Of a stretch of 42,306 nucleotides of DNA, positions 11,120-23,492 are shown in pieces; position 1 is the stretch's first letter; every line of letters begins with the position of its first letter. This DNA comes from a virus (lineage: Duplodnaviria > Heunggongvirae > Uroviricota > Caudoviricetes). The notes below the pieces were generated by a model that worked only from the letters and a program-made list of their open reading frames with translations, was not told where the DNA came from and did no database searches. The DNA lies in IMG/VR virus record IMGVR_UViG_2617271049_000012; one strand, written 5' to 3'. The translations under genes and the position numbers were made by a program.

Positions 11120-11928
11120 ACGGGGAACTGGTGGATATTCATGGGCAGCCTTTACGGCAAGGCATGGGATATTCTGGTGGTGGTTCCGGGTTCGGTGGGC
11201 AAATGGCAGAATGGCTGCCTGCACCGGAAAGTGCCGACGTGGCGCTCTTACCTTCCATTCATCTGGGTAACGCCCGCGCGGATGAGCTGGTCCGTAACAA
11301 CGGTATTGCATCGAATGCAGTGGAAATTCATAAGGATCATATTGTCGGGCACATGTTTCGTCTGAGTTACCGTCCCAACTGGCGCTGGCTGGGGATGTCG
11401 GAAGCAGATTCACATGCTTTTATTGAAGATGTTGAGGCGGCGTGGATGGAATACTGCGATCCGGTGTTTGGTACGATGGATGTGGAAGGGCGTCGTTCGT
11501 TTACCGAATTCATTCGTGAAGGGGTGGGGGTCCATACGTTTAACGGTGAAATTTTTGTCCAGCCCGTATGGGATGCGGAATCCACGTCATTATTCCGGAC
11601 GAAATTCAAAACCATCAGCCCGAAGCGTGTCAGTACACCCGGTTATGGTACCGGCGATCGTTTTATGCGTGCCGGGGTGGAAATAAACCGACACGGAAAA
11701 GCGCTGGCCTACCATGTTCAGGATGATGACTGGCCCGGCTACGGTGTCAGTAAATGGACACGAATTACGGCAACACTGCCTTCCGGACGACCGGGAATGA
11801 TCCATGTGTTTCAGCCACAGGAAGACGGGCAGACCCGCGGGGCCAACCAGTTTTATTCTGTAATGGAGCGTCTCAAGATGCTCGACACACTGCAGGCCAC
11901 GCAACTGCAGTCGGCGGTGGTTCGCGCC
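11116..11928 (+). CDS. B: Portal protein B, 5' portion (about 271 codons); gene interrupted by mobile element insertion
   Basis: Colinear with lambda gpB N-terminal half up to ...TQLQSAVVRA; after the junction the frame runs into 18 unrelated codons and a stop (ORF end 11982). Confidence 0.85.
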
Positions 11929-11930
11929 AT
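11924..11930. repeat. attL core (GCGCCAT), left copy of direct repeat
   Basis: Identical 7-mer at the right junction (22729..22735); flanking bases TTATG versus GTATG. Confidence 0.6.
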
Positions 11931-12059
11931 TTATGTCTATTATCTCCCCGTAGTTGTCGCCACCATTCATCAACTCCACTAAAACCCTTGATATGTCTGG
12001 AATGTCGTTTTTTGTATTTATGATGACCGTTCATTACCTTTCGTGTTTTTCGCGGTTTT

Positions 12060-12112
12060 GTGTATTGCAATGTGTATTGCAAGTTGGCGTTTGGATGGGG
12101 TGTGTATTGCAA
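12060..12112. repeat. Three direct copies of GTGTATTGCAA near attL, upstream of int (candidate arm-type or regulator binding sites)
   Basis: Copies at 12060-12070, 12072-12082 and 12102-12112; related copies near attR (22633..22654). Confidence 0.55.
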
Positions 12113-12131
12113 ATTGACGTGTAGGCTACAT

Positions 12132-13373
12132 ATGGCTATCGAGAATAAACTGACTGACAAACTTCTGAAAAGTCTTGCAGGTAAGCCGCAGGACAGACAA
12201 AAAATCATGGCTGATGGGCGGGGGCTATCTGTTCGTGTAAGCGTGGTTGGGGGAATTAGTTTCGTTTTTTACTATCGTATTGGCGGCAGGGATGCCCCTC
12301 CGGTATGGCTGACCCTTGGGCGTTATCCTGATATGTCTCTGGCAGCCGCCAGGAGATTACGCGACCAGTGCCGTGAATGGCTGGCGGAAAATCTGGATCC
12401 TCGCAGACAAATAAAACTTGTAGCTGAAAAAAACATGCGCCCTGTAACTGTAAGGGATGCGGTGCTTTACTGGTACGATAATCACGCCAGGACAGCCAGA
12501 AAGCAGCATGAGTATTTAATAAAAAGATTTGAAAAGCATATTTTTCCATATATCGGAGATATGGCTATAGAACAGTGCAAATTGCATACCTGGCTTACTG
12601 TATTTGACAGAATTAAAAAAAATGCTCCTGTTATGTCTGGTGCTATTTTTCTTGATATTAAACAGGCGTTACGTTTTTGCCGTATCAGGCAATACATTAG
12701 TTGCGATCCATTCGGTGATATTAACGTTAGTTATGTTGGACGTTCAGCAGGCATAAGGGATCGTGTTCTGAGTATTAATGAAGCCGCTGACGTATGGTCT
12801 TATGCCTATGGCAACAATTTACTTACCCTTTCATCAATACATAACCGAAGAATTATGGTTATCTGCCTGGTGTTTGGTTGCCGTCAGCAGGAGGCGCGGT
12901 TATCCACTTGGGAAGAATGGGATTTAAAAAACTGGATTTGGACAGTTCCAAAAGAGCACAGCAAGAACGGCGAGGTTATTGTAAGACCAGTCCCTGATGG
13001 AATAAAACAATGGGTTATTAATCTTTATGCGGAAACAAAGCACCGGGATTGTGTTATCGGTAGATCACTGAAGCGAGCGACAATAACAGGAGCAGCAAGC
13101 CGGATATGTAGGCGGCTAGGGCATGATGTAAATGGTCTGTGGTGCATACATGATTTCAGGCGTACATTTTCAACAATGCTTAACGATATGGGTGCCGATC
13201 CTTATATTGTAGAGCTTCTGCTTGGTCATAAAGTTAAAGGTGTGGCGGGTGTTTATAATAAAAGCAAGCATGTAAAGAAAAAACTTGAGGTTCTTAATAT
13301 GTGGGTTAATTACCTTAACACGATAGCCGGATTTAATAATAACGTTATTGAACTGAGTAAAGAGGTTGTTTGA
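12132..13373 (+). CDS. int: Tyrosine integrase, P4-type
   Basis: N-terminal P4-integrase-like region (LTDKLLKSL...KIMADGRGLSVRVSVVGGISFVFYYRIGGRD...WLTLGRYPDMSLAAARR) and C-terminal catalytic region (HDFRRTFSTMLNDMG...ELLLGHKV..VAGVYNKS); adjacent to attL. Confidence 0.9.
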   Translation: MAIENKLTDKLLKSLAGKPQDRQKIMADGRGLSVRVSVVGGISFVFYYRIGGRDAPPVWLTLGRYPDMSLAAARRLRDQCREWLAENLDPRRQIKLVAEKNMRPVTVRDAVLYWYDNHARTARKQHEYLIKRFEKHIFPYIGDMAIEQCKLHTWLTVFDRIKKNAPVMSGAIFLDIKQALRFCRIRQYISCDPFGDINVSYVGRSAGIRDRVLSINEAADVWSYAYGNNLLTLSSIHNRRIMVICLVFGCRQQEARLSTWEEWDLKNWIWTVPKEHSKNGEVIVRPVPDGIKQWVINLYAETKHRDCVIGRSLKRATITGAASRICRRLGHDVNGLWCIHDFRRTFSTMLNDMGADPYIVELLLGHKVKGVAGVYNKSKHVKKKLEVLNMWVNYLNTIAGFNNNVIELSKEVV

Positions 13374-13374
13374 T

Positions 13375-13632
13375 ATGTCAGTTTATTCACTTGTTGATGA
13401 AAAAGATTTTACTGCAATGCCGGATATTGATCGTGTCATTCGTGAAAAAGAATGCGTGGCACTTACTACGCTGGCAAATTCAACACGCTGGAAACTGGAA
13501 AAGACAGGTAAGTTCCCAAAACGTATTAAGATTGGTGAACGTGCCGCTGGCTATCGTCTCTCGGAGATTCAGGCGTGGATCCGTGGCGATTGGCACCCAG
13601 GATGGAAACCGGAAAAAACAAAACAGCAATAA
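13375..13632 (+). CDS. alpA: AlpA-family transcriptional regulator/excisionase
   Basis: Small HTH protein with AlpA-like motif (TGKFPKRIKIGERAAGYRLSEIQAWI); overlaps the int stop. Confidence 0.8.
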   Translation: MSVYSLVDEKDFTAMPDIDRVIREKECVALTTLANSTRWKLEKTGKFPKRIKIGERAAGYRLSEIQAWIRGDWHPGWKPEKTKQQ

Positions 13633-13648
13633 CCAGGAGATAAACACA

Positions 13649-13673
13649 GCCCCGCTCAATGCGGGGTTTTTTG
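13649..13673 (+). terminator. Rho-independent terminator
   Basis: CCCCGC-TCAAT-GCGGGG hairpin followed by TTTTTTG. Confidence 0.6.
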
Positions 13674-13691
13674 TATGTGAGGTAAAAAGCG

Positions 13692-14270
13692 ATGAATAAA
13701 AATATTGCCGTGACGGGCAAAGGTGACGCTCGTCTAGTGAAAAAATTCTGTGATATTCGTGATCTGGTCGTTCTGCGCTTTGATGGTGTGAACGTTCGCG
13801 TGGTGTATCTGAACGGCGATCCGTGGTTTGTTGCAGTTGACGTGTGCGCTGCGCTGGAAATTGTTGATCACAAGGTTGCGTTACGCCGTCTCGATGATGA
13901 TGAAAAGGGGGAGTGTTTAATACCCACCCTTGGCGGAAATCAAACAATGCGAACTGTATGCGAGTCAGGTTTCTACAAACTAATAGCCCGTAGCCGCAAA
14001 GCAACGACGCCTGGCACGTTCGCCCATCGTTTCAGTAACTGGGTATTCAGAAATGTGATACCGGGTATCAGAAAAACGGGGGCTTATGGTATCCCGTGGG
14101 GCGCATTACAGGATTTTTCCCGCCGTAAAGAGCAATATCAGATAAGTGCCAGCGAGAAGGGGAGGGAGCTACAGGCATGTAAGCGCAAAAAGCGTGAGCT
14201 GGAGGAAGAAGAAAAAAGGCTGATACGTGAATATCAGCCTGAGTTTTACTTTGGTGAGCGTATTCAGTAA
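13692..14270 (+). CDS. BRO-N domain protein (antirepressor-like)
   Basis: N-terminal Bro-N pattern (LRFDGVNVRVVYLNGDPWFVAVDVCAALEI...ESGFYKLIARSRKA); charged coiled-coil C-terminus. Confidence 0.75.
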   Translation: MNKNIAVTGKGDARLVKKFCDIRDLVVLRFDGVNVRVVYLNGDPWFVAVDVCAALEIVDHKVALRRLDDDEKGECLIPTLGGNQTMRTVCESGFYKLIARSRKATTPGTFAHRFSNWVFRNVIPGIRKTGAYGIPWGALQDFSRRKEQYQISASEKGRELQACKRKKRELEEEEKRLIREYQPEFYFGERIQ

Positions 14271-14552
14271 CCACTCGCAGTGCTGATTATACGGTACATC
14301 GTGTTAACCGGGAAGCTACCCACCAGCAAGGCAAAATCTTCTGCTAAAAAATGATATATGGTCAGCCGTCCGGAAAGCATGAAATTTTACAAAAATGGAA
14401 AATGAAGATTTTTATTGTGCTGGTGGGTAAAAACAAAAAGCGCCCCGTTGCCGGAGCGCCTTTGTGAACAATTAACCTACTGCGCAAAAAATGAATCTGA
14501 GCAGTGGGATTATATCAACCGTGTGACGAAGCGCCACAATTGCCGGATAACA

Positions 14553-14583
14553 GGCAAAACAAAGGCCACCCGCTACGGTGGCC
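14553..14583 (-). terminator. Rho-independent terminator for the minus-strand small-gene pair
   Basis: GGCCACC-CGCTAC-GGTGGCC hairpin with an A run on the + strand upstream (a U run on the minus-strand transcript). Confidence 0.5.
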
Positions 14584-14686
14584 CTTCAACACAAGCTACA
14601 CGTTATCCCCAACGCATGAGCATCACCAACAATGCCACATTTGCGGCTAGTGGGCAATGTGATCAGTGTGCTGGCTTGCTGGTGGG

Positions 14687-14884
14687 CTATTCCTGCTCTT
14701 TAGCATCGCCATGCTGCGATGTTTTCCAGGTATGCGATCCCATTTTTGTGCGCCTGTACTCTTTAAGGAACTTCTCAAGGACAAACGCACATGGTGCGAA
14801 TCTTTCCTGTTCTTGTTCGCTTACCGCGTTTTTGCGTTGTTTTTTCCTGGATGAGGATAATTTCTTTAATGATTTGTCAGTCAT
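14687..14884 (-). CDS. Small basic protein, paralog of the adjacent ribbon-helix-helix-like repressor
   Basis: 65-aa ORF between the RHH gene and a minus-strand terminator; shares ...SEQEQ...F.....FVLE... and the C-terminal AKEQE with 14942..15139. Confidence 0.4.
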   Translation of the reverse strand: MTDKSLKKLSSSRKKQRKNAVSEQEQERFAPCAFVLEKFLKEYRRTKMGSHTWKTSQHGDAKEQE

Positions 14885-14941
14885 CGTAGATACCTGTAAC
14901 CCAGTGCGCCACAGTTCACCGCACCACAGCGCTGGTGATGG

Positions 14942-15139
14942 TTACTCCTGCTCTTTGGCCTTCCGGCGCTGTTCATATTTTAATTTGCGTCCACAGGCAT
15001 CTAAGACCCATGCGGAAAAATTAGCACTAGGATTAGTTAATTTTTCTTGTTCAACACTGGCATCAATCCCATCTATAAGCTCGTGCGGGAATCGAATGTT
15101 TTTCTTTGCTGATTTGTTGTTTGTGTTTCCGCTAGACAT
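14942..15139 (-). CDS. Putative ribbon-helix-helix (Arc/Mnt-like) repressor
   Basis: 65 aa; N-terminal beta-strand-like KNIRFPHELIDGID; GAGGTG RBS 7 nt upstream of ATG; palindromic operators immediately upstream. Confidence 0.5.
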   Translation of the reverse strand: MSSGNTNNKSAKKNIRFPHELIDGIDASVEQEKLTNPSANFSAWVLDACGRKLKYEQRRKAKEQE

Positions 15140-15165
15140 TGGTACACCTCATTTAAATGGATTTG

Positions 15166-15246
15166 ATGGGCGCACACAATACAGCAAAAAAAGTGAGAAG
15201 TTAAGTATTGACATGTGCGCACACATAATTTTAATCTGTGCGCACA
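15166..15246. promoter_or_regulatory. Divergent control region with three palindromic operators TGTGCGCACA (one imperfect) overlapping a TTGACA -35 element
   Basis: Sites at 15168-15178 (GGGCGCACACA, imperfect), 15214-15223 and 15237-15246 (perfect 10-bp palindromes); TTGACA at 15208-15213. Confidence 0.65.
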
Positions 15247-15344
15247 GTTTGGGTTGCATTGCTCAAATTAAGCAACGCCCCGCAGTGCTCGCAACACATG
15301 CAGGGCGTCTAACCACCAACGATAGCAATAGTATCGAGGTAGCT

Positions 15345-15548
15345 ATGTTAAATCATACCACACACCCGCAAGGGCGGGACTCGCACAACCTGAATAAATA
15401 CATCTGGCGTTTTATCGCCCTGAGCACGGCACAGCCGCGCGTGATTACCATTGAGGCCACCAGCGAACAGGAAGCACGCCAGCAATCCCCGGCTGGCTGC
15501 GTGATGGTATTCGCCGCTCGTATTCGTCAGGAGGTGCGCCATGATTAA
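15345..15548 (+). CDS. Small satellite protein, possibly Icd-like (weak recollection only)
   Basis: First + strand ORF downstream of the operator region (MLNHTTHPQ...YIWRFIALSTAQPRVITIEATSEQEARQQ...); lies inside a spurious 377-aa track ORF. Confidence 0.4.
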   Translation: MLNHTTHPQGRDSHNLNKYIWRFIALSTAQPRVITIEATSEQEARQQSPAGCVMVFAARIRQEVRHD

Positions 15549-15753
15549 CCTGTCACTTACCGACCTTAACCGCATTCAGTTTCGTGAGAAATTTACCGGG
15601 CAGCTACTGGTCAATGTGGATAAAGGTCGCGTGGTGTGTAATTACCACCTGCCAGATGAAGCCATTGTCGCAACAAGGGAATCATTACAGGAACTCGCAG
15701 AACGTGCCGGAATGATTAACGCGAATATTCAGGGGGTGAGACATGTGCAATAA
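15541..15753 (+). CDS. Hypothetical small protein (70 aa)
   Basis: ATG overlapping upstream stop (ATGA); part of a tightly packed + strand operon. Confidence 0.45.
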   Translation: MINLSLTDLNRIQFREKFTGQLLVNVDKGRVVCNYHLPDEAIVATRESLQELAERAGMINANIQGVRHVQ

Positions 15754-15982
15754 CCCACGTCCGGACGCAGCCGCCGAAGCCATCAAAACGCTGATGCACG
15801 CGCTGATTGATATTTCATGCACGGCAGCAATCGCAGAAAAATACATTACCAGAGAGACGGAATATACAGGGGAAATAATCCCCCATTCGCTGGCCTACGC
15901 ACAGCTTACCGCTGATATGGCACTGAATGAGGCCAGGGCTATCCTGATTGCTGATTGTGAAAATGGGGGGGGTTATGCGTGA
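15743..15982 (+). CDS. Hypothetical small protein (79 aa)
   Basis: Overlapping-start operon member; no domain recognised. Confidence 0.4.
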   Translation: MCNNPRPDAAAEAIKTLMHALIDISCTAAIAEKYITRETEYTGEIIPHSLAYAQLTADMALNEARAILIADCENGGGYA

Positions 15983-16208
15983 TGATCGTTTTAATGCCCT
16001 GAAACAGGAATTTGATGGCGCACCGGAAGATACAGATATTGCGCTGTTATGTGTTGCTGACATGGTAAAAGCTGCATGTTTTTTACTGGAAACCGCCGAA
16101 CATTCAGGAACGGGTAGCGATATTCTCAATATTGCGTCGGACTATGCGGAATATGTGGCAGAGACGCGTTACAGAAGTAAATTCCCGGAGGGGGTGAGCC
16201 ATGCATGA
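15948..16208 (+). CDS. Hypothetical small acidic protein (start ambiguous: 15948, 15963 or 15975)
   Basis: Operon member; GGGGG RBS-like tract before ATG 15975. Confidence 0.4.
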   Translation: MLIVKMGGVMRDDRFNALKQEFDGAPEDTDIALLCVADMVKAACFLLETAEHSGTGSDILNIASDYAEYVAETRYRSKFPEGVSHA

Positions 16209-16434
16209 TATTTACAATGACACAGTAGACCATGCATACAGCGCACTTGCTTACAGTGAAAACATGCTTGAAATATTGCGCTTATGGCTTGAAACGCTTG
16301 GCGATAATGAAAGAGATAAACGCAACAGCAATATTGCAACAGCATTAATAACGCTTCTTGAGCCTGTAATAAATGAACTGCAAGAAATAGACATCTTGCA
16401 CGACAGATATAAAGAGCCACACACCGGAGAATAA
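16201..16434 (+). CDS. Hypothetical small protein (77 aa)
   Basis: ATG overlapping previous stop; operon member. Confidence 0.4.
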   Translation: MHDIYNDTVDHAYSALAYSENMLEILRLWLETLGDNERDKRNSNIATALITLLEPVINELQEIDILHDRYKEPHTGE

Positions 16435-16439
16435 AAACC

Positions 16440-16739
16440 ATGAAAAAGAAAAATTCTGGCTTTACTGCCAGCGGCCCCGCTCGGCCTGAAATCCGCCCCG
16501 GCGATATTTTCCGGGATAACTACGGCGGCACGGTAACGATTAAAAGTATTGCCGGACGGTGCGTTACTTACCGCCGTGATGGGTACAGCTACGACTGCGT
16601 GATGCCTGTTTATCAGTTCCGGCGTGATTTTTCTCTGGAACAGGCCGCACCACACAAACAGCCCACCAGCAACGCAAAGGCACGGGCGAACATTCAGAAA
16701 ATGAAAAACATGATTAACGCATTCAGGGGTAAAAAATGA
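16440..16739 (+). CDS. Hypothetical small basic protein (99 aa)
   Basis: Operon member directly upstream of rep; stop overlaps the rep start. Confidence 0.4.
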   Translation: MKKKNSGFTASGPARPEIRPGDIFRDNYGGTVTIKSIAGRCVTYRRDGYSYDCVMPVYQFRRDFSLEQAAPHKQPTSNAKARANIQKMKNMINAFRGKK

Positions 16740-18151
16740 AACTGGCACCGAACTTAAAAAAACAGCCGCACGACAAAATGACCGAAGTCATTATTTTTGC
16801 GGGTAGTGATGCCTGGGCGCACGCGAAACAATGGCAGGAGCAGGACGGGCGACTTGCTGGCGACAATGTTCCGCCTGTATGGCTTGGAGACAACCAGCTT
16901 GACGAACTGGCAGACCTGAAAATCATCGATGATGGTCGCTATTGTGTCCGGCTGTACAAGGCAGGCCACATCAAGCCGTCAAATATTAATGCCATCGGGC
17001 AAAAGCTGGCGGCGGCAGGTGTACGGGATGCGAATTATTACCCTGAGGGAATGCACAGCCAGAAGCTGGAGAACTGGCACGACTACCTGCAACGGATCCG
17101 CGAACAGACAGAGCGCGGGGAAATACTTACTGACGAGCAATACAGCCAGCGAAAAACCACGCTACCAATGAGCATTGGATCTGCAGGGTACGACACACAG
17201 CTTGATTATGTCGTTAAGGGCGTGATTCCGGCTAATTCATTGTGCAGCACATACGGCTCGAGCGGTTCCTATAAATCGTTCCTCGCGTGTTCCTGGGCGT
17301 GTCATGTTGCCACGGGTCGCCACTGGGGAGGCCGCAGGGTGGCGCATGGTTCGGTGATGTATGTCGTCGGTGAAGGGGGGATAGGTGTCCCCCGTCGTAT
17401 CAAGGCATGGGAAATCGTTAATGATGAACGGGTGGAAAATCTGTACCTGGTAAACCGCCCGATTTTTCCGGCAGTCCCGCTTGATGTCGATGAAATGGTC
17501 ATCGCTTCCCGCCAGGTTGAACGGGAAACGGGTAAACCGGTACGCATGATTATTCTGGATACGCTGGCGCGTTGCTTTGGCGGTAATGATGAAAATGACG
17601 CGCGGGATATGGGGGCGTTTATCCGTGGATGTGACGAACTGAAACGACGCACAGGGGCCACGGTGCTGGTGGTTCACCATTCCGGCAAGGATGAAACAAA
17701 GGGGGCGCGTGGTTCCAGTGCATTTCGTGCATCTCTGGACGCTGAATACCGTATTCGCCGTGAAGGTGCGGACAGTGAAGCCCTGGTTATCTCCTGCACC
17801 AAAATGAAGGACGCGGAGGAACTGAAAGAGGCTGCATATGATTTACGCGTGGTGGAGCTTTTTACCGACACTGACGGGGAGTTAATCACGTCGCTGGTGG
17901 TTGTGGATAAGCCGCGCCCACCTGTTGAACTGGAGCGCATCGAGGAGGCCGGGAACAAGACGGAGAATCATGCCGCGCTATGGCAGTGCATCAGAACGCG
18001 AACAGCACACGGGGAGGCGTGCACTATCGCCCTTCTCCGCGACGATATGAAAAAGCTGGGGTATGAAATGAAAAACTTCCGGCGCTGGCTGTACAAGCTG
18101 GAAAGCGACGGCGTAATCGCTATTGACGGTGATTATGTGCGCCCACTGTAA
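16736..18151 (+). CDS. Replication initiator/helicase (RepA-like RecA-fold ATPase with N-terminal extension)
   Basis: Walker A-like YGSSGSYKSF and Walker B-like RMIILDTLARCFGG; iteron array immediately downstream. Confidence 0.7.
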   Translation: MKLAPNLKKQPHDKMTEVIIFAGSDAWAHAKQWQEQDGRLAGDNVPPVWLGDNQLDELADLKIIDDGRYCVRLYKAGHIKPSNINAIGQKLAAAGVRDANYYPEGMHSQKLENWHDYLQRIREQTERGEILTDEQYSQRKTTLPMSIGSAGYDTQLDYVVKGVIPANSLCSTYGSSGSYKSFLACSWACHVATGRHWGGRRVAHGSVMYVVGEGGIGVPRRIKAWEIVNDERVENLYLVNRPIFPAVPLDVDEMVIASRQVERETGKPVRMIILDTLARCFGGNDENDARDMGAFIRGCDELKRRTGATVLVVHHSGKDETKGARGSSAFRASLDAEYRIRREGADSEALVISCTKMKDAEELKEAAYDLRVVELFTDTDGELITSLVVVDKPRPPVELERIEEAGNKTENHAALWQCIRTRTAHGEACTIALLRDDMKKLGYEMKNFRRWLYKLESDGVIAIDGDYVRPL

Positions 18152-18353
18152 AAAGTGAGGAGCAAAAGTGAGGATAGCGGGTAATTTAACAAAAAATCAG
18201 CGCTACTCCTCACTTTCTCACCTGTATATAGGTCAAAAAGTGAGGAATAAAAAATACATTGCAAAACAACGCATTACAGAAGAAAAAAAACAGGTGAGGA
18301 GCAGGACGGGAATAACAAAAAGTGAGGAATAAAAGTGAGTAGAGGTGAGGAAT
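18150..18353. repeat. Iteron array (about 8 copies of AAAGTGAGGA in both orientations): putative satellite replication origin
   Basis: Copies at about 18153, 18165, 18207 (inverted), 18236, 18291, 18318, 18331 and 18343, within AT-rich DNA 3' of rep. Confidence 0.7.
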
Positions 18354-18603
18354 GACCAGAAAAACCAGAGATAAGACAGCACCAAAATATCGCGCATTAG
18401 ACATGACAGAGCACGCCTTAAAGGTGGCAATCAGAACAATAGACCGCCATGCCGGAGAAGGATACGCAAAAGCACATCCAGAACTGATACGCGCATTCAT
18501 GACCACAGCGGCGGCAAACTTTGCCACGCTGACAGAACGGGAGATTGCCGAAGCGGAACAGGTGACAACCATCAACGTTAAAAACGGAGAGCATACAGCA
18601 TGA
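18352..18603 (+). CDS. Hypothetical protein (83 aa)
   Basis: ATG right after the iterons; stop overlaps the ssb start. Confidence 0.4.
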   Translation: MTRKTRDKTAPKYRALDMTEHALKVAIRTIDRHAGEGYAKAHPELIRAFMTTAAANFATLTEREIAEAEQVTTINVKNGEHTA

Positions 18604-19022
18604 CAGCACAGATAGCGGCTTACGGGCGGCTGGTGGCTGACCCGCAGTTAAAGACCACCAGCAAAGGGACACAAATGGCGATGGCGAGTATGGCGGTTCC
18701 CCTTCCGTGCAGCCAGGCAGATGACGGAACGGCGACGATGTGGTTATCCGTCCTGGCGTTTGGCAGGCAGGCCGACGCACTGGCAAAGCACCACAAAGGC
18801 GAACTGGTGAGCGTGGCGGGTAACATGCAGGTAAGCCAGTGGACAGGCCAGAACGGCGAAACGCGGCAGGGCTGGCAGGTTATCGCAGACAGCGTAATCA
18901 GTGCCAGAACGGCGCGACCGGGCGGCAAAAAAGGCCAGCAGGGCCAGGCTACTGACGCACTGAACAGGGCAAAACAACAGGCGGGAAATGATGATCCGTA
19001 CGGGGATAACATACCGTTTTAA
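18600..19022 (+). CDS. ssb: Single-stranded DNA-binding protein (SSB-like)
   Basis: OB-fold-like core, Gly/Gln-rich linker and acidic C-terminal tip (DDPYGDNIPF) resembling the SSB DDDIPF tail. Confidence 0.7.
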   Translation: MTAQIAAYGRLVADPQLKTTSKGTQMAMASMAVPLPCSQADDGTATMWLSVLAFGRQADALAKHHKGELVSVAGNMQVSQWTGQNGETRQGWQVIADSVISARTARPGGKKGQQGQATDALNRAKQQAGNDDPYGDNIPF

Positions 19023-19035
19023 GCAACGAGTGACA

Positions 19036-19063
19036 GAAGCCGGGATTTTTCCCGGCTTTTTTG
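19036..19063 (+). terminator. Rho-independent terminator after ssb
   Basis: AGCCGGG-ATTTTT-CCCGGCT followed by TTTTTTG; a second hairpin (19076-19100) with an upstream A run could terminate minus-strand transcription. Confidence 0.6.
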
Positions 19064-19196
19064 TGCGCAAAAAAAATCCCCCGGGATGAGGTTCCGGGGG
19101 ATTTCACGCCGCTAACGTGATTAGCGCTGAATGACTCTGTGGTACAAGGAGTAAAACCACGGCATCATGATTTCATGATTTGCAACAACAGTCAAT

Positions 19197-19219
19197 ATCA
19201 TTGCAAAAAATGCAATGAT
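19197..19219. promoter_or_regulatory. Perfect palindrome ATCATTGCA-AAAAA-TGCAATGAT upstream of the satellite capsid operon (candidate activator/operator site)
   Basis: 9-bp inverted arms around a 5-bp A spacer; shares the ATTGCAA core with the repeats at both island ends; preceded by direct repeats CATGATTT. Confidence 0.5.
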
Positions 19220-19280
19220 GATTAAAATCATGAATGACTTTTCGTTATGTTTATTTTTTAGTCAAAGAGGAATCTCATTT

Positions 19281-19487
19281 ATGGGAACACAGAAGCCGGG
19301 CGGTGTATCCGTGTACATCAGCCCCGATATTATCGCCGCACTTAATGCGCGCTTTGAGGAGAACGCAGAGGCAGGAAAAAAAATCGGCCTTGATCCGTTG
19401 TGCCTGGTGAAGCCGTCAGTCGGCTGGATGGTACGCAGCCATTTACGCGCTGCGCTTGGTATGAATCAGCCTCATGGGGGTGAGTAA
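19281..19487 (+). CDS. Hypothetical small protein preceding the capsid gene
   Basis: ATG with AAGAGGAA RBS; stop overlaps the capsid ATG (TAATG). Confidence 0.4.
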   Translation: MGTQKPGGVSVYISPDIIAALNARFEENAEAGKKIGLDPLCLVKPSVGWMVRSHLRAALGMNQPHGGE

Positions 19488-20542
19488 TGACAGCGCCGCA
19501 ACTGGTAAGCACACCAACGCTACTGAAAAATATCGGGCGCGAAGATGTGCCGGAATTTAAATTTAATCCACTCTTTACTACGTTGTTCTTTCCGAACGTC
19601 GCTACTTTCAGCACCAGAGATATTGCACTTGATACGCTGGATATTGAAAACGTGGTCATGAGTCCGTTTTGTTCTCCAATGTCAGGCAGCCAGGTTATGC
19701 GTGACAAAGGTTTCACAACGAACACGTTCACGCCGGGTTATATGAAGCCCAAACACGTTATTGATCCCACCAAAACAATCATGCGCATGCCTGGAGAACA
19801 GATCGGCAATGGTCAGTCTTCCCCGGCACTACGCCGCGTAAAAATGGTTCACGACAGCCAGAAAAAACAGCTTGCTGCCATCAAAGCGCGTGTTGAATGG
19901 CTGGCGGTCAATGCCATCACAACAGGCCGTAACGTTATTGAGGGCGAAGGCATTGAGCGTTATGAAATTGACTGGGGATTACCCGAAACCAATCATATTA
20001 CGCAGGCTGGCGGGAAAGAATGGTCAAAACAGGATGCCGAAACGTTTGATCCGATAAGCGACATTGAGGCTTACGCTGATTTTTCCGAAGGTACGGTAAA
20101 TATTATCGTCATAGGTGGCGAAGCCTGGCGTATTTTGCGCTCGTTCCGTCGATTCCGCGAACTAATGGACACGCGTCGCGGTTCAAACTCGTCACTTGAA
20201 CTTGCGCTAAAAGATTTGGGCGGCGTTGTCAGCTTCAAGGGGTATCTCGGTGATGTGGCGATCGTGGTTTATTCCGGTCGTTATGACGACGAAAACGGGC
20301 AGCAGCAATATTTCCTGAAACAAAACATGATGGTTTTCGGCAATACCGAAAATAAAGGCCTTGTTGCTTATGGTGCCATCATGGATCAGGACGCGGCACG
20401 CGAGGGATTTTCTGAGGGGATGTACTACCCGAAAAATTATATCGTACCGGGCGATCCGGCGATTGAATACGTGCAGACGCACAGCGCCCCGCAGCCAGTA
20501 CCCGTGGATATTGGTCGCTTTGTTACCGTCGAAGTGAAATAA
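19487..20542 (+). CDS. Major capsid protein, lambda gpE-like (satellite-encoded paralog)
   Basis: 351 aa colinear with lambda gpE (F.F.PLF...FF.....PGY.KPKH...NITQAGG.EWSK.D..TFDP..D.EAY......NII...WR.LRSF..F.E..DTRRGSNS.LE.A.KDLG..VS.KGY.GDVAIVVYSGRY...). Diverged from the host-phage E at 25544..26572. Confidence 0.9.
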   Translation: MTAPQLVSTPTLLKNIGREDVPEFKFNPLFTTLFFPNVATFSTRDIALDTLDIENVVMSPFCSPMSGSQVMRDKGFTTNTFTPGYMKPKHVIDPTKTIMRMPGEQIGNGQSSPALRRVKMVHDSQKKQLAAIKARVEWLAVNAITTGRNVIEGEGIERYEIDWGLPETNHITQAGGKEWSKQDAETFDPISDIEAYADFSEGTVNIIVIGGEAWRILRSFRRFRELMDTRRGSNSSLELALKDLGGVVSFKGYLGDVAIVVYSGRYDDENGQQQYFLKQNMMVFGNTENKGLVAYGAIMDQDAAREGFSEGMYYPKNYIVPGDPAIEYVQTHSAPQPVPVDIGRFVTVEVK

Positions 20543-20552
20543 AGGGGATCGT

Positions 20553-20882
20553 ATGCCAACACCTTACACGCAATTCCTTTCCGGCACGCAGGAACTGGTC
20601 AGCACGCTGGCCTGTTTTGCCAGTGCCGGAGAAATTAAAGCGAGAACTCCGCTGATGCAGAACGGCGCGGGCCTGATGGTTGAGTGGGACGGTACACCCG
20701 GTAAGGCGGTGTATCTGACCATATCGGACATTAACACGGCCACAAAAAACCGCGCACAGGTTTATAAGTGCGGGGTTTTTAATATCGATGAAATTAACTG
20801 GCCTGATACAGCGGACACGTTCGAGAAAAAAGTGTCGGCTTTTGTTGGTTCCGGTATTTCCGTGCAGCCTTTAGGGCAATAA
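20553..20882 (+). CDS. Head decoration protein, lambda gpD-like (satellite-encoded)
   Basis: 109 aa; gpD-like motifs (TPLM......WDGT.G.AV.......YK.G.F....WPD.A.....AF.G..IS) directly after the capsid gene. Confidence 0.65.
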   Translation: MPTPYTQFLSGTQELVSTLACFASAGEIKARTPLMQNGAGLMVEWDGTPGKAVYLTISDINTATKNRAQVYKCGVFNIDEINWPDTADTFEKKVSAFVGSGISVQPLGQ

Positions 20883-20896
20883 TTTTGTGGTGATTT

Positions 20897-21322
20897 ATGA
20901 CTGAGAAAGCAAATTCAACCAGAGCATTGATCATGGCACTGCCTGAGGCGCAGAAATACCCGACGCTTGCGGAAAATCTCGCAAATAATGGCGCATCACT
21001 GACAGAAGCCCGAACGGTGCTTACTGCAAAGGCTGAGAGTGATAAACAGCGCATAGAGGGTATCAAGGCGTTACCGCTGGCATCAAAATACCCTGAGTTC
21101 ACCAGTAAGCTGATTGAGTGTGGTTCTGAAGTAATGACAGTAACCTATGCACAAACGTTACTGGCTGCCGTGGATGCCCAGGCAATGATGCAGGAAAAGA
21201 AAACGGCTTTTCTGTTTGAAGCGTACATGGAAAAGCACAGCCCGAAATGTGTTGGGCCAGCAGCCGGTGATGGCAACGCCGGACTGACCGAAGATGAAAA
21301 GCTGTTGCTGTCTGTTAAGTAA
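20897..21322 (+). CDS. Putative scaffold protein (Nu3-like) with ALPEA/ALPLA repeat motifs
   Basis: Two repeats (ALPEAQKYPTLAENLANNGASLTEARTVL / ALPLASKYPEFTSKLIECGSEVMTVTYAQTLLAAVD) resembling the ALPEAKGREQLA..LAEQPGMTVEQAKTLLAAAP repeats in the host-phage C/Nu3. Confidence 0.5.
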   Translation: MTEKANSTRALIMALPEAQKYPTLAENLANNGASLTEARTVLTAKAESDKQRIEGIKALPLASKYPEFTSKLIECGSEVMTVTYAQTLLAAVDAQAMMQEKKTAFLFEAYMEKHSPKCVGPAAGDGNAGLTEDEKLLLSVK

Positions 21323-21336
21323 CTGAAATGAACGTT

Positions 21337-21368
21337 CGCGAGGCTGGCAAGGTCTCGCGATTTTTTTT
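21337..21368 (+). terminator. Rho-independent terminator
   Basis: TCGCGAG-loop-CTCGCGA followed by TTTTTTTT. Confidence 0.6.
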
Positions 21369-21394
21369 GTATCCGGAACGGTGGTGATCGCCCC

Positions 21395-21480
21395 AATTTT
21401 CACGGGTCCTTTCCAGAATCAGAAACACCGCGGGGCGGCAGACGCGCAAAAACGCGCTATTTATGAAAATTTTTCAGGAA
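21395..21480 (+). other. Satellite cos site (cosQ/cosN-like) mimicking the host-phage cos
   Basis: CACGGGTCCTTTCC...CGCGGGGCGGCAGACGCGC...CGCTATTTATGAAAATTTTTCAGG parallels the host cos at 8250..8330; directly upstream of the satellite terS. Confidence 0.75.
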
Positions 21481-21620
21481 AAAGCATGTCGGTACTTCTC
21501 GCGCATAACTGTTTGTTTTTATTAAAATCAACCACCAGGAACATACGACATCATAAAGCCCAAAAATCCTGTTTTTTTGGCGTTTCATGTCGGAACTGGT
21601 TTTTGATAAGGAATTGATAG

Positions 21621-22223
21621 ATGAATGTTAATAAAAATAATCTTGCGAAGATTTTTGGCGTCGATCCGCGCACGATTGAACGATGGCAAACGCAAGGGCT
21701 TCCCCATGTATCTGGTGGGGGTAAAGGTGTGGAGGTGACTTTCGACTCTGCGCAGGTGATCGAATGGTATGCACAGAGGGAGAAGGACATCGAAAACGAA
21801 AAACTCCGCAGGGAACTTGATGATTTACGTGCCGATGGTGAATCAGATTTACAGCCAGGCACAACAGAATACGAACGCTATCGCCTCACCAAAGCACAGG
21901 CGGACGGGCAGGAGCTAAAGAACACCAAGGAGACAGGGGAAGTTATCGATACTGAGTTCGTGCTCTATGCGCTTCGTGGGCTGGCGAGCCAGATTTCTTC
22001 GATCATGGATAGTTTACCGCTCACAATGCAAAGGCAGTTCCCCGCGATGACTCAGACAATGATCGAGGGACTGAGGAAGGAAACAGCACGGGCCTGTAAT
22101 GCGTGCGCTAAAACTGCCGATAACCTGCCCCGCATTCTGGAAGACTACCTGATGGAAACAACCGGAAACGTGCCGGAGAAATTACGGCAACAGAAAGGTG
22201 AGTGGCAGCCGCGCAATTATTGA
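21621..22223 (+). CDS. Terminase small subunit, Nu1-like (satellite-encoded paralog)
   Basis: N-terminal region near-colinear with the host Nu1 ([79 protein letters not shown]); C-terminal part diverged and longer (200 aa). Confidence 0.85.
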   Translation: MNVNKNNLAKIFGVDPRTIERWQTQGLPHVSGGGKGVEVTFDSAQVIEWYAQREKDIENEKLRRELDDLRADGESDLQPGTTEYERYRLTKAQADGQELKNTKETGEVIDTEFVLYALRGLASQISSIMDSLPLTMQRQFPAMTQTMIEGLRKETARACNACAKTADNLPRILEDYLMETTGNVPEKLRQQKGEWQPRNY

Positions 22224-22233
22224 ACAAAACTGA

Positions 22234-22296
22234 GAAAGGATCTGATAACGTCATTTTTGGCCCAAAATGACCACTGTCAGATCCTTTCTTTTTTTG
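22234..22296 (+). terminator. Long-stem terminator after the satellite terS
   Basis: AGAAAGGATCTGA...TCAGATCCTTTCT inverted repeat followed by TTTTTTT. Confidence 0.55.
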
Positions 22297-22470
22297 ATGA
22301 TTTTACCATTAAACAATGAGTTACAGAGAAGAAGAACGGATCTGACTTTTCCCGAAAAATTTTCATAAACAGTTAAGAATTGCGCGTATGGCTACCCCCG
22401 GTGTTTTATTTTCCAGGAAGGACCCGCCACAATTACGGCATTGTTTTCCATCACCACGGAGGCCATGACA

Positions 22471-22656
22471 ATGACCGAAGCCGAAATGCTCAAAATGATT
22501 CGCCGCGTTACCGGATCCAGCAAGACAGCAGGCAAACAGGAGACCACGCAGCCGGACAGCGTGATAGCCGAAAATTACGCGCGTGTGGTGGCTGAGGTGA
22601 TGCGCCGTGACGGTATTCACAAGCAACAATTTGCGTATTGCAATGTGTATTGCTAA
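22471..22656 (+). CDS. Hypothetical small protein at the right end of the island
   Basis: GGAGG RBS 9 nt upstream of ATG 22471; 3' end runs through the GTATTGCAA repeats near attR. Confidence 0.3.
   Translation: MTEAEMLKMIRRVTGSSKTAGKQETTQPDSVIAENYARVVAEVMRRDGIHKQQFAYCNVYC
22633..22654. repeat. Two direct copies of (G/T)CGTATTGCAA / GTGTATTGC near attR
   Basis: Same motif and orientation as the three copies near attL. Confidence 0.55.
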
Positions 22657-22728
22657 CCCTCCAAACGGGTGAAATATGCAAACATAACATATTGTTTTGT
22701 CTTTTTATTTTTTCGTATCTTTTCATAA

Positions 22729-22735
22729 GCGCCAT
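22729..22735. repeat. attR core (GCGCCAT), right copy of direct repeat
   Basis: Identical to 11924..11930; its last base pair is the first base of the portal codon ATG (M) that resumes the reading frame. Confidence 0.6.
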
Positions 22736-23492
22736 GTATGCCGCCACGATTGAATCCACACTGGATTCGGAAAAAGCGTTTGAATATATCGCCGGGGTGG
22801 GAGATGGAGGTAAAAATCCCCTGAACACCATCATGAAAGGCTACGCGCGTTATTACGCCACCAATACGGTAAAACTGGGAGGGGTCCGTATTCCGCATCT
22901 TTACCCGGGAGATTCACTGAATCTGCAGACAGCCCAGAATGCGGATAATGGTTTTTCTGAACTGGAAAAGGCGCTGTTACGTTACATTGCTGCCGGACTG
23001 GGTGTGTCGTATGAGCAGCTTTCCCGGGATTATTCACAGGTCAGTTATTCCAGTGCCAGGGCATCCGCCAATGAGTCGTGGCGGTATTTTATGGGAAAAC
23101 GAAAATTTGTGGCCAGTCGCCTGGCGTCACAGATGTTTGCCTGCTGGCTGGAGGAAGCCCTTATTCGTGGTGTGATCCGTCCGCCGAAATCCCGTTTCTC
23201 ATTCTGGGAGGCCCGTTCCGGGTGGTGCCGTGCCGAGTGGATTGGTGCCGGTCGTATGGCGATTGATGGCCTTAAGGAAGTGCAGGAAGCGGTGATGCGC
23301 ATTGAAGGCGGCCTGAGTACATACGAGAAAGAGCTGGCCCTGATGGGGGATGACTATCAGGAGATTTTCCGCCAGCAGCTACGGGAAACTCAGGAGCGAC
23401 AGGCTGCCGGTCTTCCGCGTCCGGTCTGGATAAAGGACGCGTTTCAACAGCAGATCCGACAGACAACGGGAGAAAAAGGCGATGCGCTGTAA
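22734..23492 (+). CDS. B: Portal protein B, 3' portion (about 252 codons)
   Basis: MYAATIES...DSLNLQTAQ..DNG.S..E..LLRYIAAGLGVSYEQLSR.Y.Q.SYS.ARASANESW.YFMG.RKFVAS...WIG.GRMAIDGLKEVQEAVM.IE.GLSTYEKE colinear with the lambda gpB C-terminal half; joins in frame to 11928. Confidence 0.85.
   Translation: MYAATIESTLDSEKAFEYIAGVGDGGKNPLNTIMKGYARYYATNTVKLGGVRIPHLYPGDSLNLQTAQNADNGFSELEKALLRYIAAGLGVSYEQLSRDYSQVSYSSARASANESWRYFMGKRKFVASRLASQMFACWLEEALIRGVIRPPKSRFSFWEARSGWCRAEWIGAGRMAIDGLKEVQEAVMRIEGGLSTYEKELALMGDDYQEIFRQQLRETQERQAAGLPRPVWIKDAFQQQIRQTTGEKGDAL

Follow-up and report, generated by a model that had tools for sequence, protein, structure and literature searches.

A Nu1-family small terminase gene between convergent cos sites, a probable packaging module of a helper-embedded PICI

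The 42,306-nucleotide stretch of viral DNA analysed here (the window) contains a satellite with its own cos site and its own Nu1-like small terminase but no large terminase, as a sequence-only reading of this DNA had maintained; the satellite must therefore use the large terminase of a helper. The explanation that we consider probable is that this cos site (cos2), the small terminase gene (terS2) and a third, inverted cos site (cos3) together package a helper-embedded phage-inducible chromosomal island (helper-embedded PICI, HE-PICI) of 10.8 kb, as its packaging module, and that cos2-terS2-cos3 is a TerS allele of the cos1-rppA-cos2 cassette. To judge from their sequences, cos2 and terS2 are real, functional-looking and for the most part already explained by known systems.

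On the plus strand, the helper's small terminase, TerS1 (182 aa; 8470..9018), is 94% identical to gp1 of phage 21, and its large terminase (TerL; gpA family; 8990..10906) shares 82% identity with gp2 of phage 21 and 64% with lambda gpA, with an N-terminal TerS-binding region of the phage 21 gp2 type. The portal gene, also on the plus strand, is split. Its 5' part (11116..11930; Pfam Phage_portal_2 positions 2-242) ends at the attL core GCGCCAT (11924-11930), with the open frame continuing into the island to 11982, and its 3' part (Pfam positions 235-353) occupies 22729..23492 together with the attR core GCGCCAT (22729-22735). Joining 11116-11930 to 22736-23492 in silico yielded a single open portal frame of 523 codons (…VVRAMYAATIES…), and the rejoined portal is 71.5% identical to that of phage 21. 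By these matches, the helper is a lambdoid prophage of the phage 21 class.

The island itself (10,805 bp; 11931..22735, plus strand) is co-oriented with the portal gene, which it splits at Pfam positions ~235-242 without replacement sequence, leaving both halves incomplete. At its upstream end, int (12060-13373; Arm-DNA-bind_3 and Phage_integrase) and an AlpA gene (13366-13632; Phage_AlpA, 55.9 bits) read inward. Further along are Bro-N (13692-14270), DUF4222 (16440-16739), a RepA-type AAA_25 helicase (16736-18151), iterons (18150-18363), SSB (18600-19022), an E-like capsid protein (19487-20542), a D-like decoration protein (20553-20882) and a Nu3-like scaffold (a 141-aa ORF; 20897-21322), giving the zone order Integration (int/AlpA), Bro (Bro-N), Replication (DUF4222, AAA_25, SSB) and Late (capsid, decoration, scaffold-like, TerS). 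After the Nu3-like gene, the island ends with cos2, terS2 and cos3, in that order. The arm motif has six matches against 0.95 expected, with TGTGTATTGCA at 12059, 12071, 12101, 22632 and 22644. The doubled motif tgTGTATTGCantgTGTATTGCa lies at 22632-22654, 78-100 bp before the core centre at 22732, and at the other end at 12059-12081, starting 132 bp past the core centre at 11927; in the published definition for HE-PICIs, the doubled motif lies on both sides of the attP centre, ~81 bp upstream and ~132 bp downstream (PMC10111431).

Known HE-PICIs (Eco567.11capE; the B:Phage_portal_2:241 group) are likewise embedded in, and disrupt, a late gene of a prophage in the same orientation (PMC10111431), and they too have int and AlpA, the four zones and the arm motif TGTATTGC, doubled and with the published spacing (PMC10111431). 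The portal site found here is the B:Phage_portal_2:241 position, with the Pfam break at ~235-242 and the core at the AMYAAT codons (PMC10111431), and a related island (89% nucleotide match) occupies the same site in E. coli CFSAN064035. Judged by gene content and att structure, the island is an HE-PICI, integrated in the helper portal gene in the late-gene orientation. A search with the whole island gave no match in the phage collection, and none of the complete E. coli genomes contained at least 80% of it.

Two candidate interpretations of the island's late genes were discarded. We rejected an Rpp identity for the 141-aa ORF, which had no PDB sequence match; it aligns with phrog_53 at positions 500-577 and is 36% identical to residues 409-535 of the helper S49 protease/scaffold. 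We also dropped the claim that the capsid, decoration and scaffold homologues produce small capsids, because EcCICFT073, which has the same genes, reportedly fills phage-sized heads; moreover, lambda plaques did not return when c1499 or c1500 was deleted (PMC6092414).

The sequence-only reading had placed two cos-like junctions in this DNA, and both were borne out. The helper site, cos1 (8253..8470, plus strand), is of the phage 21 class: its inferred cohesive end GGGCGGCAGCGG is at 8282-8293, its R3 AAGCGTGTCGGTACTT is at 8331-8346, and its R2 and R1 have nearly the phage 21 sequence. The satellite site, cos2 (21404..21620, plus strand), aligns in register with lambda, phage 21 and cos1. It comprises a cosQ, GGGTCCTTTCC, from 21404; a 12-nt cohesive end, GGGCGGCAGACG, at 21433-21444, with nick positions inferred from the alignment; a box, TTTATGAAAATTTTTC, at 21460; R3, AAGCATGTCGGTACTT, at 21482-21497; an IHF-like I1, TAACTGTTTGTTT, at ~21506-21518; an inverted R2 at ~21541-21556; and R1 at ~21584-21599. 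When compared with the phage 21 reference (OL657228), in which cosN, R3, I1, R2 and R1 are annotated, the R3, I1, inverted R2 and R1 of cos2 each aligned with the corresponding sub-site. The R motifs of cos2 are ATGTCGG in R3 and R1 and ATGTCGT in R2. From cosQ (GGGTCCTTTCC) to the inferred nick we counted 29 nt in cos2, 29 in cos1 and 30 in lambda, and the GGGCGGCAGACG of cos2 is in register with GGGCGGCGACCT, 22 nt ahead of CGCTATTTATG. The right half of its cosN (AGACG-CGCAAAAACG) resembles that of another helper type (locus L006, PapRG-04-4), not that of phage 21.

The alignment of the two cos regions and of the two TerS proteins, which the sequence-only reading had suggested as a check, revealed one continuous register with a spacing of 13,151 bp. 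An ungapped stretch of 94 nt (8276-8369 vs 21427-21520) has 84% identity, and the homology persists into the terS genes (72% for 8395-8582 vs 21546-21733, and 71% for 8614-8807 vs 21765-21958). The 23-nt box TTTATGAAAATTTTTCRGGAAAA has three copies in the window, whereas 100 shuffles gave an expectation of 0.00: at 8309 and 21460 on the plus strand and at 22347-22369 on the minus strand. Of the upstream flank said to be common to the two sites, ACGGGTCC is right for cos2, but cos1 reads GCGGGTCC. Together, these alignments show cos2, at the level of sequence, to be a complete lambda-type cos with every sub-site at canonical spacing.

Each of these sites is followed by a Nu1-like gene, as had been proposed. 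The terS2 gene (21621..22223, plus strand) encodes a 200-aa small terminase of the Nu1 family (Pfam PF07471): TerS2 matched Phage_Nu1 with 227.7 bits over profile positions 1-162 of 164, and TerS1 with 278 bits (cut-off 30 in both cases). A sequence search of the PDB matched the N-terminal part of TerS2, a phage-21-like winged-HTH DNA-binding domain, to lambda TerS residues 1-98 (6hn7_B, E = 1.1e-37) and to 1j9i (E = 5.6e-23), and returned no full-length Nu1 and no Nu1-gpA complex structure. TerS1 and TerS2 are 57% identical across 176 aa (E = 9e-77), and the identity is distributed unevenly: 72% for residues 1-68 and 84% for 69-100, vs 40% for 101-140 and 21% for 141-183. The earlier description of a conserved N-terminus and a diverged, longer C-terminus is thus correct. 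Against phage 21 gp1, too, TerS2 is 40% identical in its central part and 21% in its C-terminal part, and no gp2 homologue is adjacent.

The C-terminal half sets TerS2 apart from the helper TerS. The tails of the two proteins (LPRILEDYLMETTG... in TerS2) share 21% identity, and over the last 43 aa the figure is again 21%, vs 43% for the tail of PhiR5_1 TerS; the N-terminus of the helper TerL is of the 21 type. The relatives of TerS2 are E. coli proteins of 193-194 aa with at least 69% identity and a tail, GNVPEKLRQQKGE, that is absent from phage TerS, whereas phage and prophage TerS (181-182 aa) are at most 67% identical. The final six residues of TerS2 were gained when the usual stop codon, TGA, became TGG. 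Members of this clade lie in chromosomal PICIs (tRNA-Pro, phoQ side) or within helper prophages, never adjoining terL, and have so far been found only in E. coli PICI contexts in E. coli genomes and the protein database. Scans of GTDB species-representative genomes gave no match to the satellite-type C-half, so statements on distribution rest on the E. coli genomes and the protein database. A 99%-identical TerS of 200 aa is present on one 5-kb ENA metagenome contig, with another downstream context. At locus L001, the satellite TerS has an unrelated N-terminus and a C-half 58-70% identical to that of TerS2. In these comparisons, the C-half (the oligomerisation region, the TerL-binding tail and the GNVPEKL... 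extension) is shown to be conserved among PICI-borne TerS. TerS2 is intact and under purifying selection, with dN/dS of 0.135 and 0.171 vs relatives. Within the island, terS2 is followed not by terL but by the inverted cos and a small ORF; this absence marks TerS2 as satellite-borne, not as a non-TerS.

That third site, cos3, is complete and convergent with cos2 (22225..22428, minus strand). Its cosQ, GGGTCCTTCC, runs downwards from 22425, its inferred cohesive end, GGTAGCCATACG, is at 22396-22385 and its R3, GTCAGATCCGTTCTTC, is at ~22347-22332, all on the minus strand; I1 is present. The R2/R1 pair of cos3 corresponds to a 'hairpin', GAAAGGATCTGA...TCAGATCCTTTC, directly 3' of the terS2 stop. 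The cosB class of cos3 (AGATCC) is unlike those of cos1 and cos2. Among phages, cos3 is closest to the cos of prophage SerU-LTIIb (KU052038), at 74.6% identity over 91% of the query and with an identical R motif. We found cos3 kept in loci L002, L007, L008 and L010. This site, like the insertion into the portal gene and the allelism with cos-rpp, was absent from the sequence-only reading.

An arrangement of this kind is known from cos-type PICIs (Fillol-Salom et al. 2018, PMC6092414; 2019, PMC6739421; Murialdo & Feiss 2022, PMC9026076). EcCICFT073 shares with the island the E-like capsid gene, the D-like decoration gene, the 137-141-aa ORF, a cos, a winged-HTH packaging gene and an inverted second cos; the gene after the inverted cos has ~94 codons in the relatives, vs a 62-71-codon frame in the window. 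In EcCICFT073 (locus L020), convergent cos sites flank rppA, at 2529 on the plus strand and 3339 on the minus strand, and both are functional (PMC6092414). In this type, as here, cosQ and cosN are like those found in lambdoid helpers, and a helper gpA-type TerL is needed. The gene between the sites differs: here it encodes a full-length Nu1-family TerS (PF07471) with a C-half, not a 139-154-aa Rpp, and TerS2 matches RppC in the HTH alone (E = 0.022). Likewise, the first cos of the Rpp type is reported to lack a phage-like cosB, whereas cos2 has phage-21-class R3-I1-R2-R1. The Rpp mechanism, an obligatory heterodimer with the helper TerS, is not implied for TerS2. An island in E. coli VG35A2 (locus L009) is 99% identical over 60% of the present one and has in the same slot the same cosQ/cosN, another cosB, a 146-aa RppC homologue (E = 8.8e-34) and then an inverted cos. 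From this near-identity, we conclude that the EcCICFT073 cos1-rppA-cos2 cassette and the module are, by sequence and position, alleles, the module being the one that carries a TerS.

Among HE-PICIs, 11capE has a cos homologous to its helper's (258 bp, 90%; PMC10111431). It is described without terS (PMC10111431), whereas the present island has one, and unlike 11capE this island carries two cos sites that are convergent and differ in cosB class. The supplementary files searched of Tommasini et al. 2023 (PMC10111431) make no mention of Nu1 or of a terminase small subunit, and a Nu1-type TerS in a cos PICI is not described in the literature found by a limited search, which leaves its novelty unproven. 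Several observations weigh against our preferred explanation. 11capE, the sole HE-PICI tried experimentally, yielded no virions (PMC10111431), and many HE-PICI helpers look truncated, the present helper lying only partly within the window. The TerS2 tail is only 21% identical to the helper's, and TerS/TerL pairs of the lambda and 21 types are class-specific (PMC9026076); TerS2 might thus be unable to function with the TerL of this helper, and the proposal of the sequence-only reading that it recruits the host large terminase is uncertain.

If cos2-terS2-cos3 is the packaging module of the HE-PICI, a sequence of events can be proposed. Upon prophage induction the composite would replicate, and satellite Int and AlpA would excise the island at GCGCCAT and restore the portal gene, as in the published HE-PICI model. 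The island, judging from its gene content, would then replicate to concatemers via its RepA-type helicase gene and iteron origin. A small-terminase dimer bound to R3 and R2 across an IHF bend would place the helper gpA-type TerL for the cosN nick and rightward packaging. Since the cosB of cos2 and the helix of TerS2 are of the helper class, discrimination between satellite and helper would not come from a private cosB, and cos1 and cos2 should each be a target for TerS1, for TerS2 and for mixed dimers. The adapted part would be the C-half of TerS2, which may recruit a non-21 gpA-type TerL or compete with, or dilute, the helper TerS. With cos3, packaging could also run the other way and dispense with TerS2, if the helper has a SerU-LTIIb-class TerS.

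A different expectation arises if TerS2 binds only the satellite cosB and the helper TerS only its own, with TerS2 recruiting the helper TerL in the manner of SaPIs; this we regard as unlikely. The recognition helix PRTIERWQ(S/T)QG is present in TerS1 and TerS2 with S24T as the sole difference, helix residues 17-23 and wing residue K35 are identical, and both proteins carry E20-R21, the pair that tracks the 21 class (QN in lambda, TG in SerU-LTIIb). On the DNA side, cos1, cos2 and phage 21 all read TGTCGGTAC at bp 55-63, the core of R3, and the sole R3 difference between cos1 and cos2 (bp 54, G->A) produces CATGTCGG, which is the reading of the helper's own R2 and R1. These data do not support the proposal of the sequence-only reading that TerS2 recognises its own cosB; by sequence, the recognition class of cos2 is the helper's own phage 21 class and not a private one. 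The C-tail of TerS2, in addition, appears mismatched to the TerL-binding class of the helper. Private specificity is favoured by residue 24, T vs S, at a position that contacts R3 bp 56 in lambda (PMC9026076), and by differences in wing-flanking residues (28-29, 34 and 39) and in R2, which in cos2 (ACATACGACATCAT) has diverged from that of the helper. Through S24T, the wing residues and the diverged R2, partial discrimination could still arise, a point against our preferred explanation. Private specificity also fits other loci: in L002 and L006 the helper has an unrelated cosB (CTTCCGGTTTT) and a TerS with an unrelated DNA-binding domain and a TerS2-like C-tail, and in L001 the satellite has a TerS with a DNA-binding domain of its own, and its cosB differs from that of the lambda-type helper. 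As summarised in PMC6739421, the pac-type SaPI TerS_S (Ubeda et al. 2007) is a satellite TerS paired with the helper TerL, which TerS2 would resemble if it binds the helper TerL. However, TerS_S belongs to an unrelated TerS family of headful pac systems in Gram-positive siphoviruses, and SaPIs have a private pac site and Ppi, whereas the present system is cos-type with a cosB class common to satellite and helper.

A tail apparently mismatched to the helper TerL is also what would be expected if TerS2 mainly did the job of Rpp or Ppi, occupying 21-class cosB or forming heterodimers with the helper TerS through the conserved interface of the DNA-binding domain; complexes bearing a non-cognate TerL-binding tail would then depress helper packaging. 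TerS2 sits in the rpp slot of near-identical islands, and TerS1 and TerS2 hardly differ at the residues of the TerS dimer interface (11-13, 43, 47 and 51; PMC9026076). Yet TerL would then have no route to cos2 besides the helper TerS, pure inhibition at a shared cosB would harm the satellite as well, and purifying selection on a full-length C-half points to a positive role, for instance in binding TerL; we hold such interference to be improbable. Still less credible to us is that cos2 and terS2 have no present role and are by-products of lambdoid late-gene capture or of a decayed second prophage. HE-PICIs and PICIs do capture helper late genes (PMC10111431), the terS2 stop is mutated to add 6 aa, and in E. 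coli TUM9812 terS has been deleted between the two cos sites. The gene is, however, conserved (dN/dS 0.14-0.17) in a discrete clade of constant length across many E. coli PICIs; all cos sub-sites are kept at canonical spacing; and the island contains no tail, portal or terL genes and has precise att sites. The nearest TerS in the phage collection is only 67% identical, so the gene is no recent capture from this helper.

A wider interpretation, which we offer tentatively as possible but doubtful, is that cos-terS-cos is a modular multi-helper cassette with a swappable DNA-binding domain and a constant C-half, and that the TerS allele is the ancestral or alternative state, with Rpp derived from it in that slot. 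The cos pair considered there consists of a 21-class site and a SerU-LTIIb-class site (AGATCC R sites), convergent and both complete. If the cassette is modular, lambdoid helpers from at least two to three terminase classes could package the island, and could do so in either direction, which bears on questions left open by Fillol-Salom et al. Both HE-PICIs (2023) and the Rpp-based redirection of lambda-type packaging by cos-type PICIs (2018-2019) were already known, and the headline is not new. What is new is a comparison set of near-identical islands with either a Nu1-family TerS or Rpp in one slot between convergent cos sites, with cosB classes assignable to known phage types. This set makes testable the origin of Rpp, the reason for two cos sites and which part of TerS sets the large-terminase partner. 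In addition, the combination of a shared cosB class with an unlike TerL-binding tail is a counter-example to equating a satellite TerS with a private packaging site.

The sequence-only reading had further predicted that two cos sites in the integrated state could cause truncated packaging unless the satellite excised. We confirmed that cos1 and cos2 are co-oriented and 13.15 kb apart, but the risk was overstated, because the portal gene is split until excision and because, with full-size heads, lambda-type terminase reportedly passes over cos sites that lie close together (PMC6092414). Lastly, we rejected the hairpin past the terS2 stop as a transcription terminator, as it is the inverted R2/R1 pair of cos3. 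A consensus scan did identify an intrinsic-terminator-like hairpin followed by T8 between the Nu3-like gene and cos2 (21336..21370, plus strand).

The window is the late region of a lambdoid prophage (the helper), with genes in the order endolysin, a DUF1398 gene, cos1 (8253-8470, plus strand), TerS, TerL, W, a split portal gene, S49 protease/scaffold, D, E and tail genes. The helper TerS (TerS1, 8470-9018) is of the Nu1 type and adjoins a gpA-type TerL (8990-10906). The helper is a relative of phage 21: TerS1 is 94% identical to phage 21 gp1, and TerL shares 82% identity with gp2 and has a gp2-type N-terminus. Its portal gene lies in two pieces (11116-11982, Pfam positions 2-242; 22638-23492, Pfam positions 235-353), broken at AMYAAT codons by an island of 10,805 bp, with the att core GCGCCAT at 11924-11930 and 22729-22735. 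Joining the flanks at this core in silico gave a single open portal frame of 523 codons (…VVRAMYAATIES…) with 71.5% identity to the portal of phage 21.

Helper-embedded PICIs (HE-PICIs) lie inside prophage late genes in the same orientation, at 14 sites, three of them in the portal gene (Tommasini, Mageeney and Williams 2023, PMC10111431). Their attP centre is flanked by a doubled arm motif, tgTGTATTGCantgTGTATTGCa, about 81 bp away on the upstream side and 132 bp away on the downstream side, and their gene content is divided into Integration, Bro, Replication and Late zones (PMC10111431). Since each of these features (late-gene site, orientation, arm motif and zones) was found in the island, we conclude that it is an HE-PICI. 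The arm motif occurs at 22632-22654 and 12059-12081, with 12059 lying 132 bp past the core centre (six matches versus 0.95 expected). E. coli CFSAN064035 has a related island at this portal site, with the two portal halves annotated as pseudogenes in RefSeq. The island begins with a tyrosine integrase, AlpA and a Bro-N protein, followed by DUF4222, an AAA_25 RepA-type helicase, iterons and SSB. It further encodes an E-like capsid protein (46% identity to helper E) and a D-like decoration protein (41% to helper D). Between the latter's gene and cos2 lies an ORF for a Nu3-like scaffold homologue of 141 aa (20897-21322), which is 36% identical to residues 409-535, in the C-terminal Nu3/scaffold part of the helper S49 protease/scaffold (E = 2.8e-11), and matches phrog_53 positions 500-577. 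Next come cos2 and terS2. Diverged versions of E, D, Nu3 and Nu1 are thus present in the island, which lacks portal, protease and TerL genes. Four copies of AAAAAGTGAGGA(G/A) lie at 18150-18363, immediately downstream of the RepA-type helicase gene, the reported location of PICI replication origins. In the Bro zone, a 377-aa ORF (14415-15548) has no Pfam match, and its C-terminal 90 residues are similar to PHROG families annotated 'transcriptional repressor' (phrog_6196, E = 7e-56).

A sequence-only reading had claimed a second cos-like junction followed by a Nu1-like gene, and we found both to be present as cos2 (21404-21620, plus strand) and terS2 (21621-22223): 8200-8480 aligns with 21370-21640. 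In the repeat finder, 8276-8369 and 21427-21520 are 84% identical over 94 nt, and two more repeat blocks span both terS genes with the register unchanged at 13,151 bp. Alignment of TerS1 with TerS2 gave 57% identity over 176 residues (E = 9e-77); both match Pfam Phage_Nu1 in a profile search, and TerS2 also aligns to the solved 1-98 fragment of lambda TerS with E = 1.1e-37. A 23-nt box, TTTATGAAAATTTTTCRGGAAAA, has three copies in the window versus 0.00 expected from shuffles; two are the cos sites named in that reading, and the third (22347-22369, minus strand) was absent from it. The cos2-terS2 feature is real and, judged by its sequence, looks functional; its kind is already known, as a PICI/HE-PICI packaging module. 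The HE-PICI 11capE has 258 bp at 90% in common with its helper's cos and is reported to lack terS (PMC10111431), whereas the island in the window has terS2.

An alignment starting at the inferred left nick compared seven cos regions: those of lambda, phage 21, PhiR5_1 and SerU-LTIIb, together with cos1, cos2 and 22208-22396 in reverse complement. Each of them has cosN, a TTTATGAAAATTTT box, R3 at bp 50-65, an I1 core (TAACT…TTGTTT), an inverted R2, and R1. By R motif, the phage 21 cosB class (ATGTCGG) holds phage 21, cos1 and cos2, with PhiR5_1 as a near variant; the SerU-LTIIb class (AGATCC) holds SerU-LTIIb and cos3, a third site in the window; and the lambda class (GTTTCC) holds lambda. TerS recognition helices follow these classes: that of phage 21 gp1 is identical to that of TerS1, the TerS2 helix departs from the TerS1 one only by S24T, lambda Nu1 has IRTIQNWQEQG and SerU-LTIIb TerS has VRTITGWQSQG. 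R3 bp 55-63 read TGTCGGTAC in cos1, cos2 and phage 21, and the sole R3 difference between cos1 and cos2, G to A at bp 54, turns the cos2 R3 into CATGTCGG, which both R2 and R1 of the helper also read. The suggestion that the satellite recognizes a private cosB therefore fails for this pair. Instead, the R3 match and the tracking of cosB class by the recognition helix indicate that cos2 and TerS2 share the specificity class of the helper.

Compared with the helper TerS, TerS2 is 72% identical over residues 1-68, 84% over 69-100, 40% over 101-140 and 21% over 141-183, and its tail (…NLPRILEDYLMETTGNVPEKLRQQKGE) is like those of PhiR5_1, the PapRG-04-4 composite and the lambda type (LP.LL.EY…), unlike the 21 type. 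In a collection of 5.8 billion proteins, relatives with at least 69% identity are 193-194 aa long, all source-named ones being from E. coli; matches of 67% or less are mostly 181-182-aa TerS proteins of E. coli and other Enterobacteriaceae. The best TerS in the phage collection is 67% identical. The genomic contexts examined for the TerS2 clade were all PICIs: at tRNA-Pro, on the phoQ side (the EcCICFT073 site), or helper-embedded, in a prophage with a lambdoid head and contractile tail. In the CFSAN064035 satellite, the N-terminal domain of TerS is unrelated and cosB is the satellite's own, yet the TerS C-terminal half is 58-70% identical to that of TerS2. The identity pattern, the PICI-only contexts and this last match point to the C-terminal half as the conserved satellite-associated part of TerS2; in lambda Nu1, oligomerisation and gpA binding map to the C-terminal region (PMC9026076). 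The TerS DNA-binding domain and cosB appear to be exchangeable modules. The CFSAN064035 unit (14561-15278 of its locus) lies in a portal-site HE-PICI with a lambda-class helper, and has cosQ/cosN near-identical to the helper's and a different cosB. Against two relatives, terS2 dN/dS was 0.135 and 0.171. At 22199-22223, the TGA stop of relatives is TGG, adding six residues (WQPRNY) for a total of 200 aa; a 99% identical 200-aa form heads a 212-sequence cluster from ENA metagenome assemblies.

An origin of Rpp, the small packaging-redirection protein of cos-type PICIs, from TerS was suggested by Fillol-Salom et al. The island of E. coli VG35A2, 99% identical to the window island across 60% of length, holds in this slot cosQ/cosN as in cos2, a different cosB, a 146-aa protein matching RppC (E = 8.8e-34) and an inverted second cos. 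In EcCICFT073 the genes and sites run capsid, decoration protein, 137-aa ORF, cos (plus), rppA (144 aa), cos (minus), 93-aa ORF. From the shared slot and this gene order, we infer that TerS2 is a positional allele of Rpp. Both EcCICFT073 cos sites are reported functional (PMC6092414), the EcCICFT073 cos1 is reported to be RppA-dependent, and the original papers reported phage cosB absent from both. Downstream of cosN, the second (NC_004431.1, locus 3190-3340, minus strand) has an inverted pair, CATGTCCGGTT / AACCGGACATG, that looks like phage-type R sites.

The third site, cos3 (22225-22428, minus strand), is complete, starts just past the terS2 stop and is inverted relative to cos1 and cos2. 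It comprises cosQ, cosN, I1 and three AGATCC R sites; its cosN is of the GGT…ACG|CGCAA type, as in the PapRG-04-4 helper, and among phage-collection sequences cos3 is best matched by the cos of prophage SerU-LTIIb. Four other loci keep cos3 adjoining terS. Because cos3 faces cos2, terminase starting there would package leftwards, and because the TerS2 helix lies outside the cos3 class, use of cos3 would call for a helper whose TerS matches it. In the chromosomal PICIs of STEC308 (NZ_CP091020.1, 15500-19100) and TUM9812 (11950-12600), the inter-cos segment is reversed relative to int and the replication genes; TUM9812 has terS deleted between inverted cos sites, and STEC308 has an additional DUF1441-type TerS-like gene. 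These two loci suggest inversion or recombination between convergent cos sites. The modest new elements are the TerS-for-Rpp allelism, the swapping of DNA-binding domains on a constant C-terminal half, and two convergent cos sites assigned to different phage cosB classes, none of which was found in the searched open-access literature.

The window holds a complete helper-class cos, an intact, selected PICI-associated TerS and no terL in the island, and an intact portal gene can be restored only by island excision. Upon induction, the island would excise and restore the portal gene, the published HE-PICI course, measured for 11capE (PMC10111431). The excised island would replicate from its own origin, and its concatemers would be cut at cos2 and packaged by helper TerL. 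As cosB is shared, helper TerS is probably able to serve cos2, and TerS2 to bind cos1. Lambda and 21 TerS-TerL pairs are class-specific (PMC9026076), and TerS2 may or may not bind the 21-type TerL of this helper. The TerS2 C-terminal half may allow pairing with more kinds of TerL; such a reading fits PapRG-04-4, where the helper DNA-binding domain and cosB are unrelated to those of TerS2 and the C-tail is similar. Alternatively, TerS2 may compete with helper TerS. Truncated packaging of the unexcised composite had also been raised as a possibility. Its geometry holds, with cos1 and cos2 co-oriented 13,151 bp apart, but the consequence is doubtful, since unexcised copies have no intact portal gene to supply and lambda-type terminase reportedly bypasses closely spaced cos sites as long as a full-size head is not yet filled (PMC6092414). 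Initiation at cos2 on the unexcised composite is possible, with product genomes lacking Nu1-A-W.

A strong terminator-like hairpin with T8 (21336-21370) separates the scaffold-like gene from cos2. Expression of terS2 from upstream would need read-through, for example by Q-antiterminated late transcription running into the embedded island, or else terS2 would need its own promoter.
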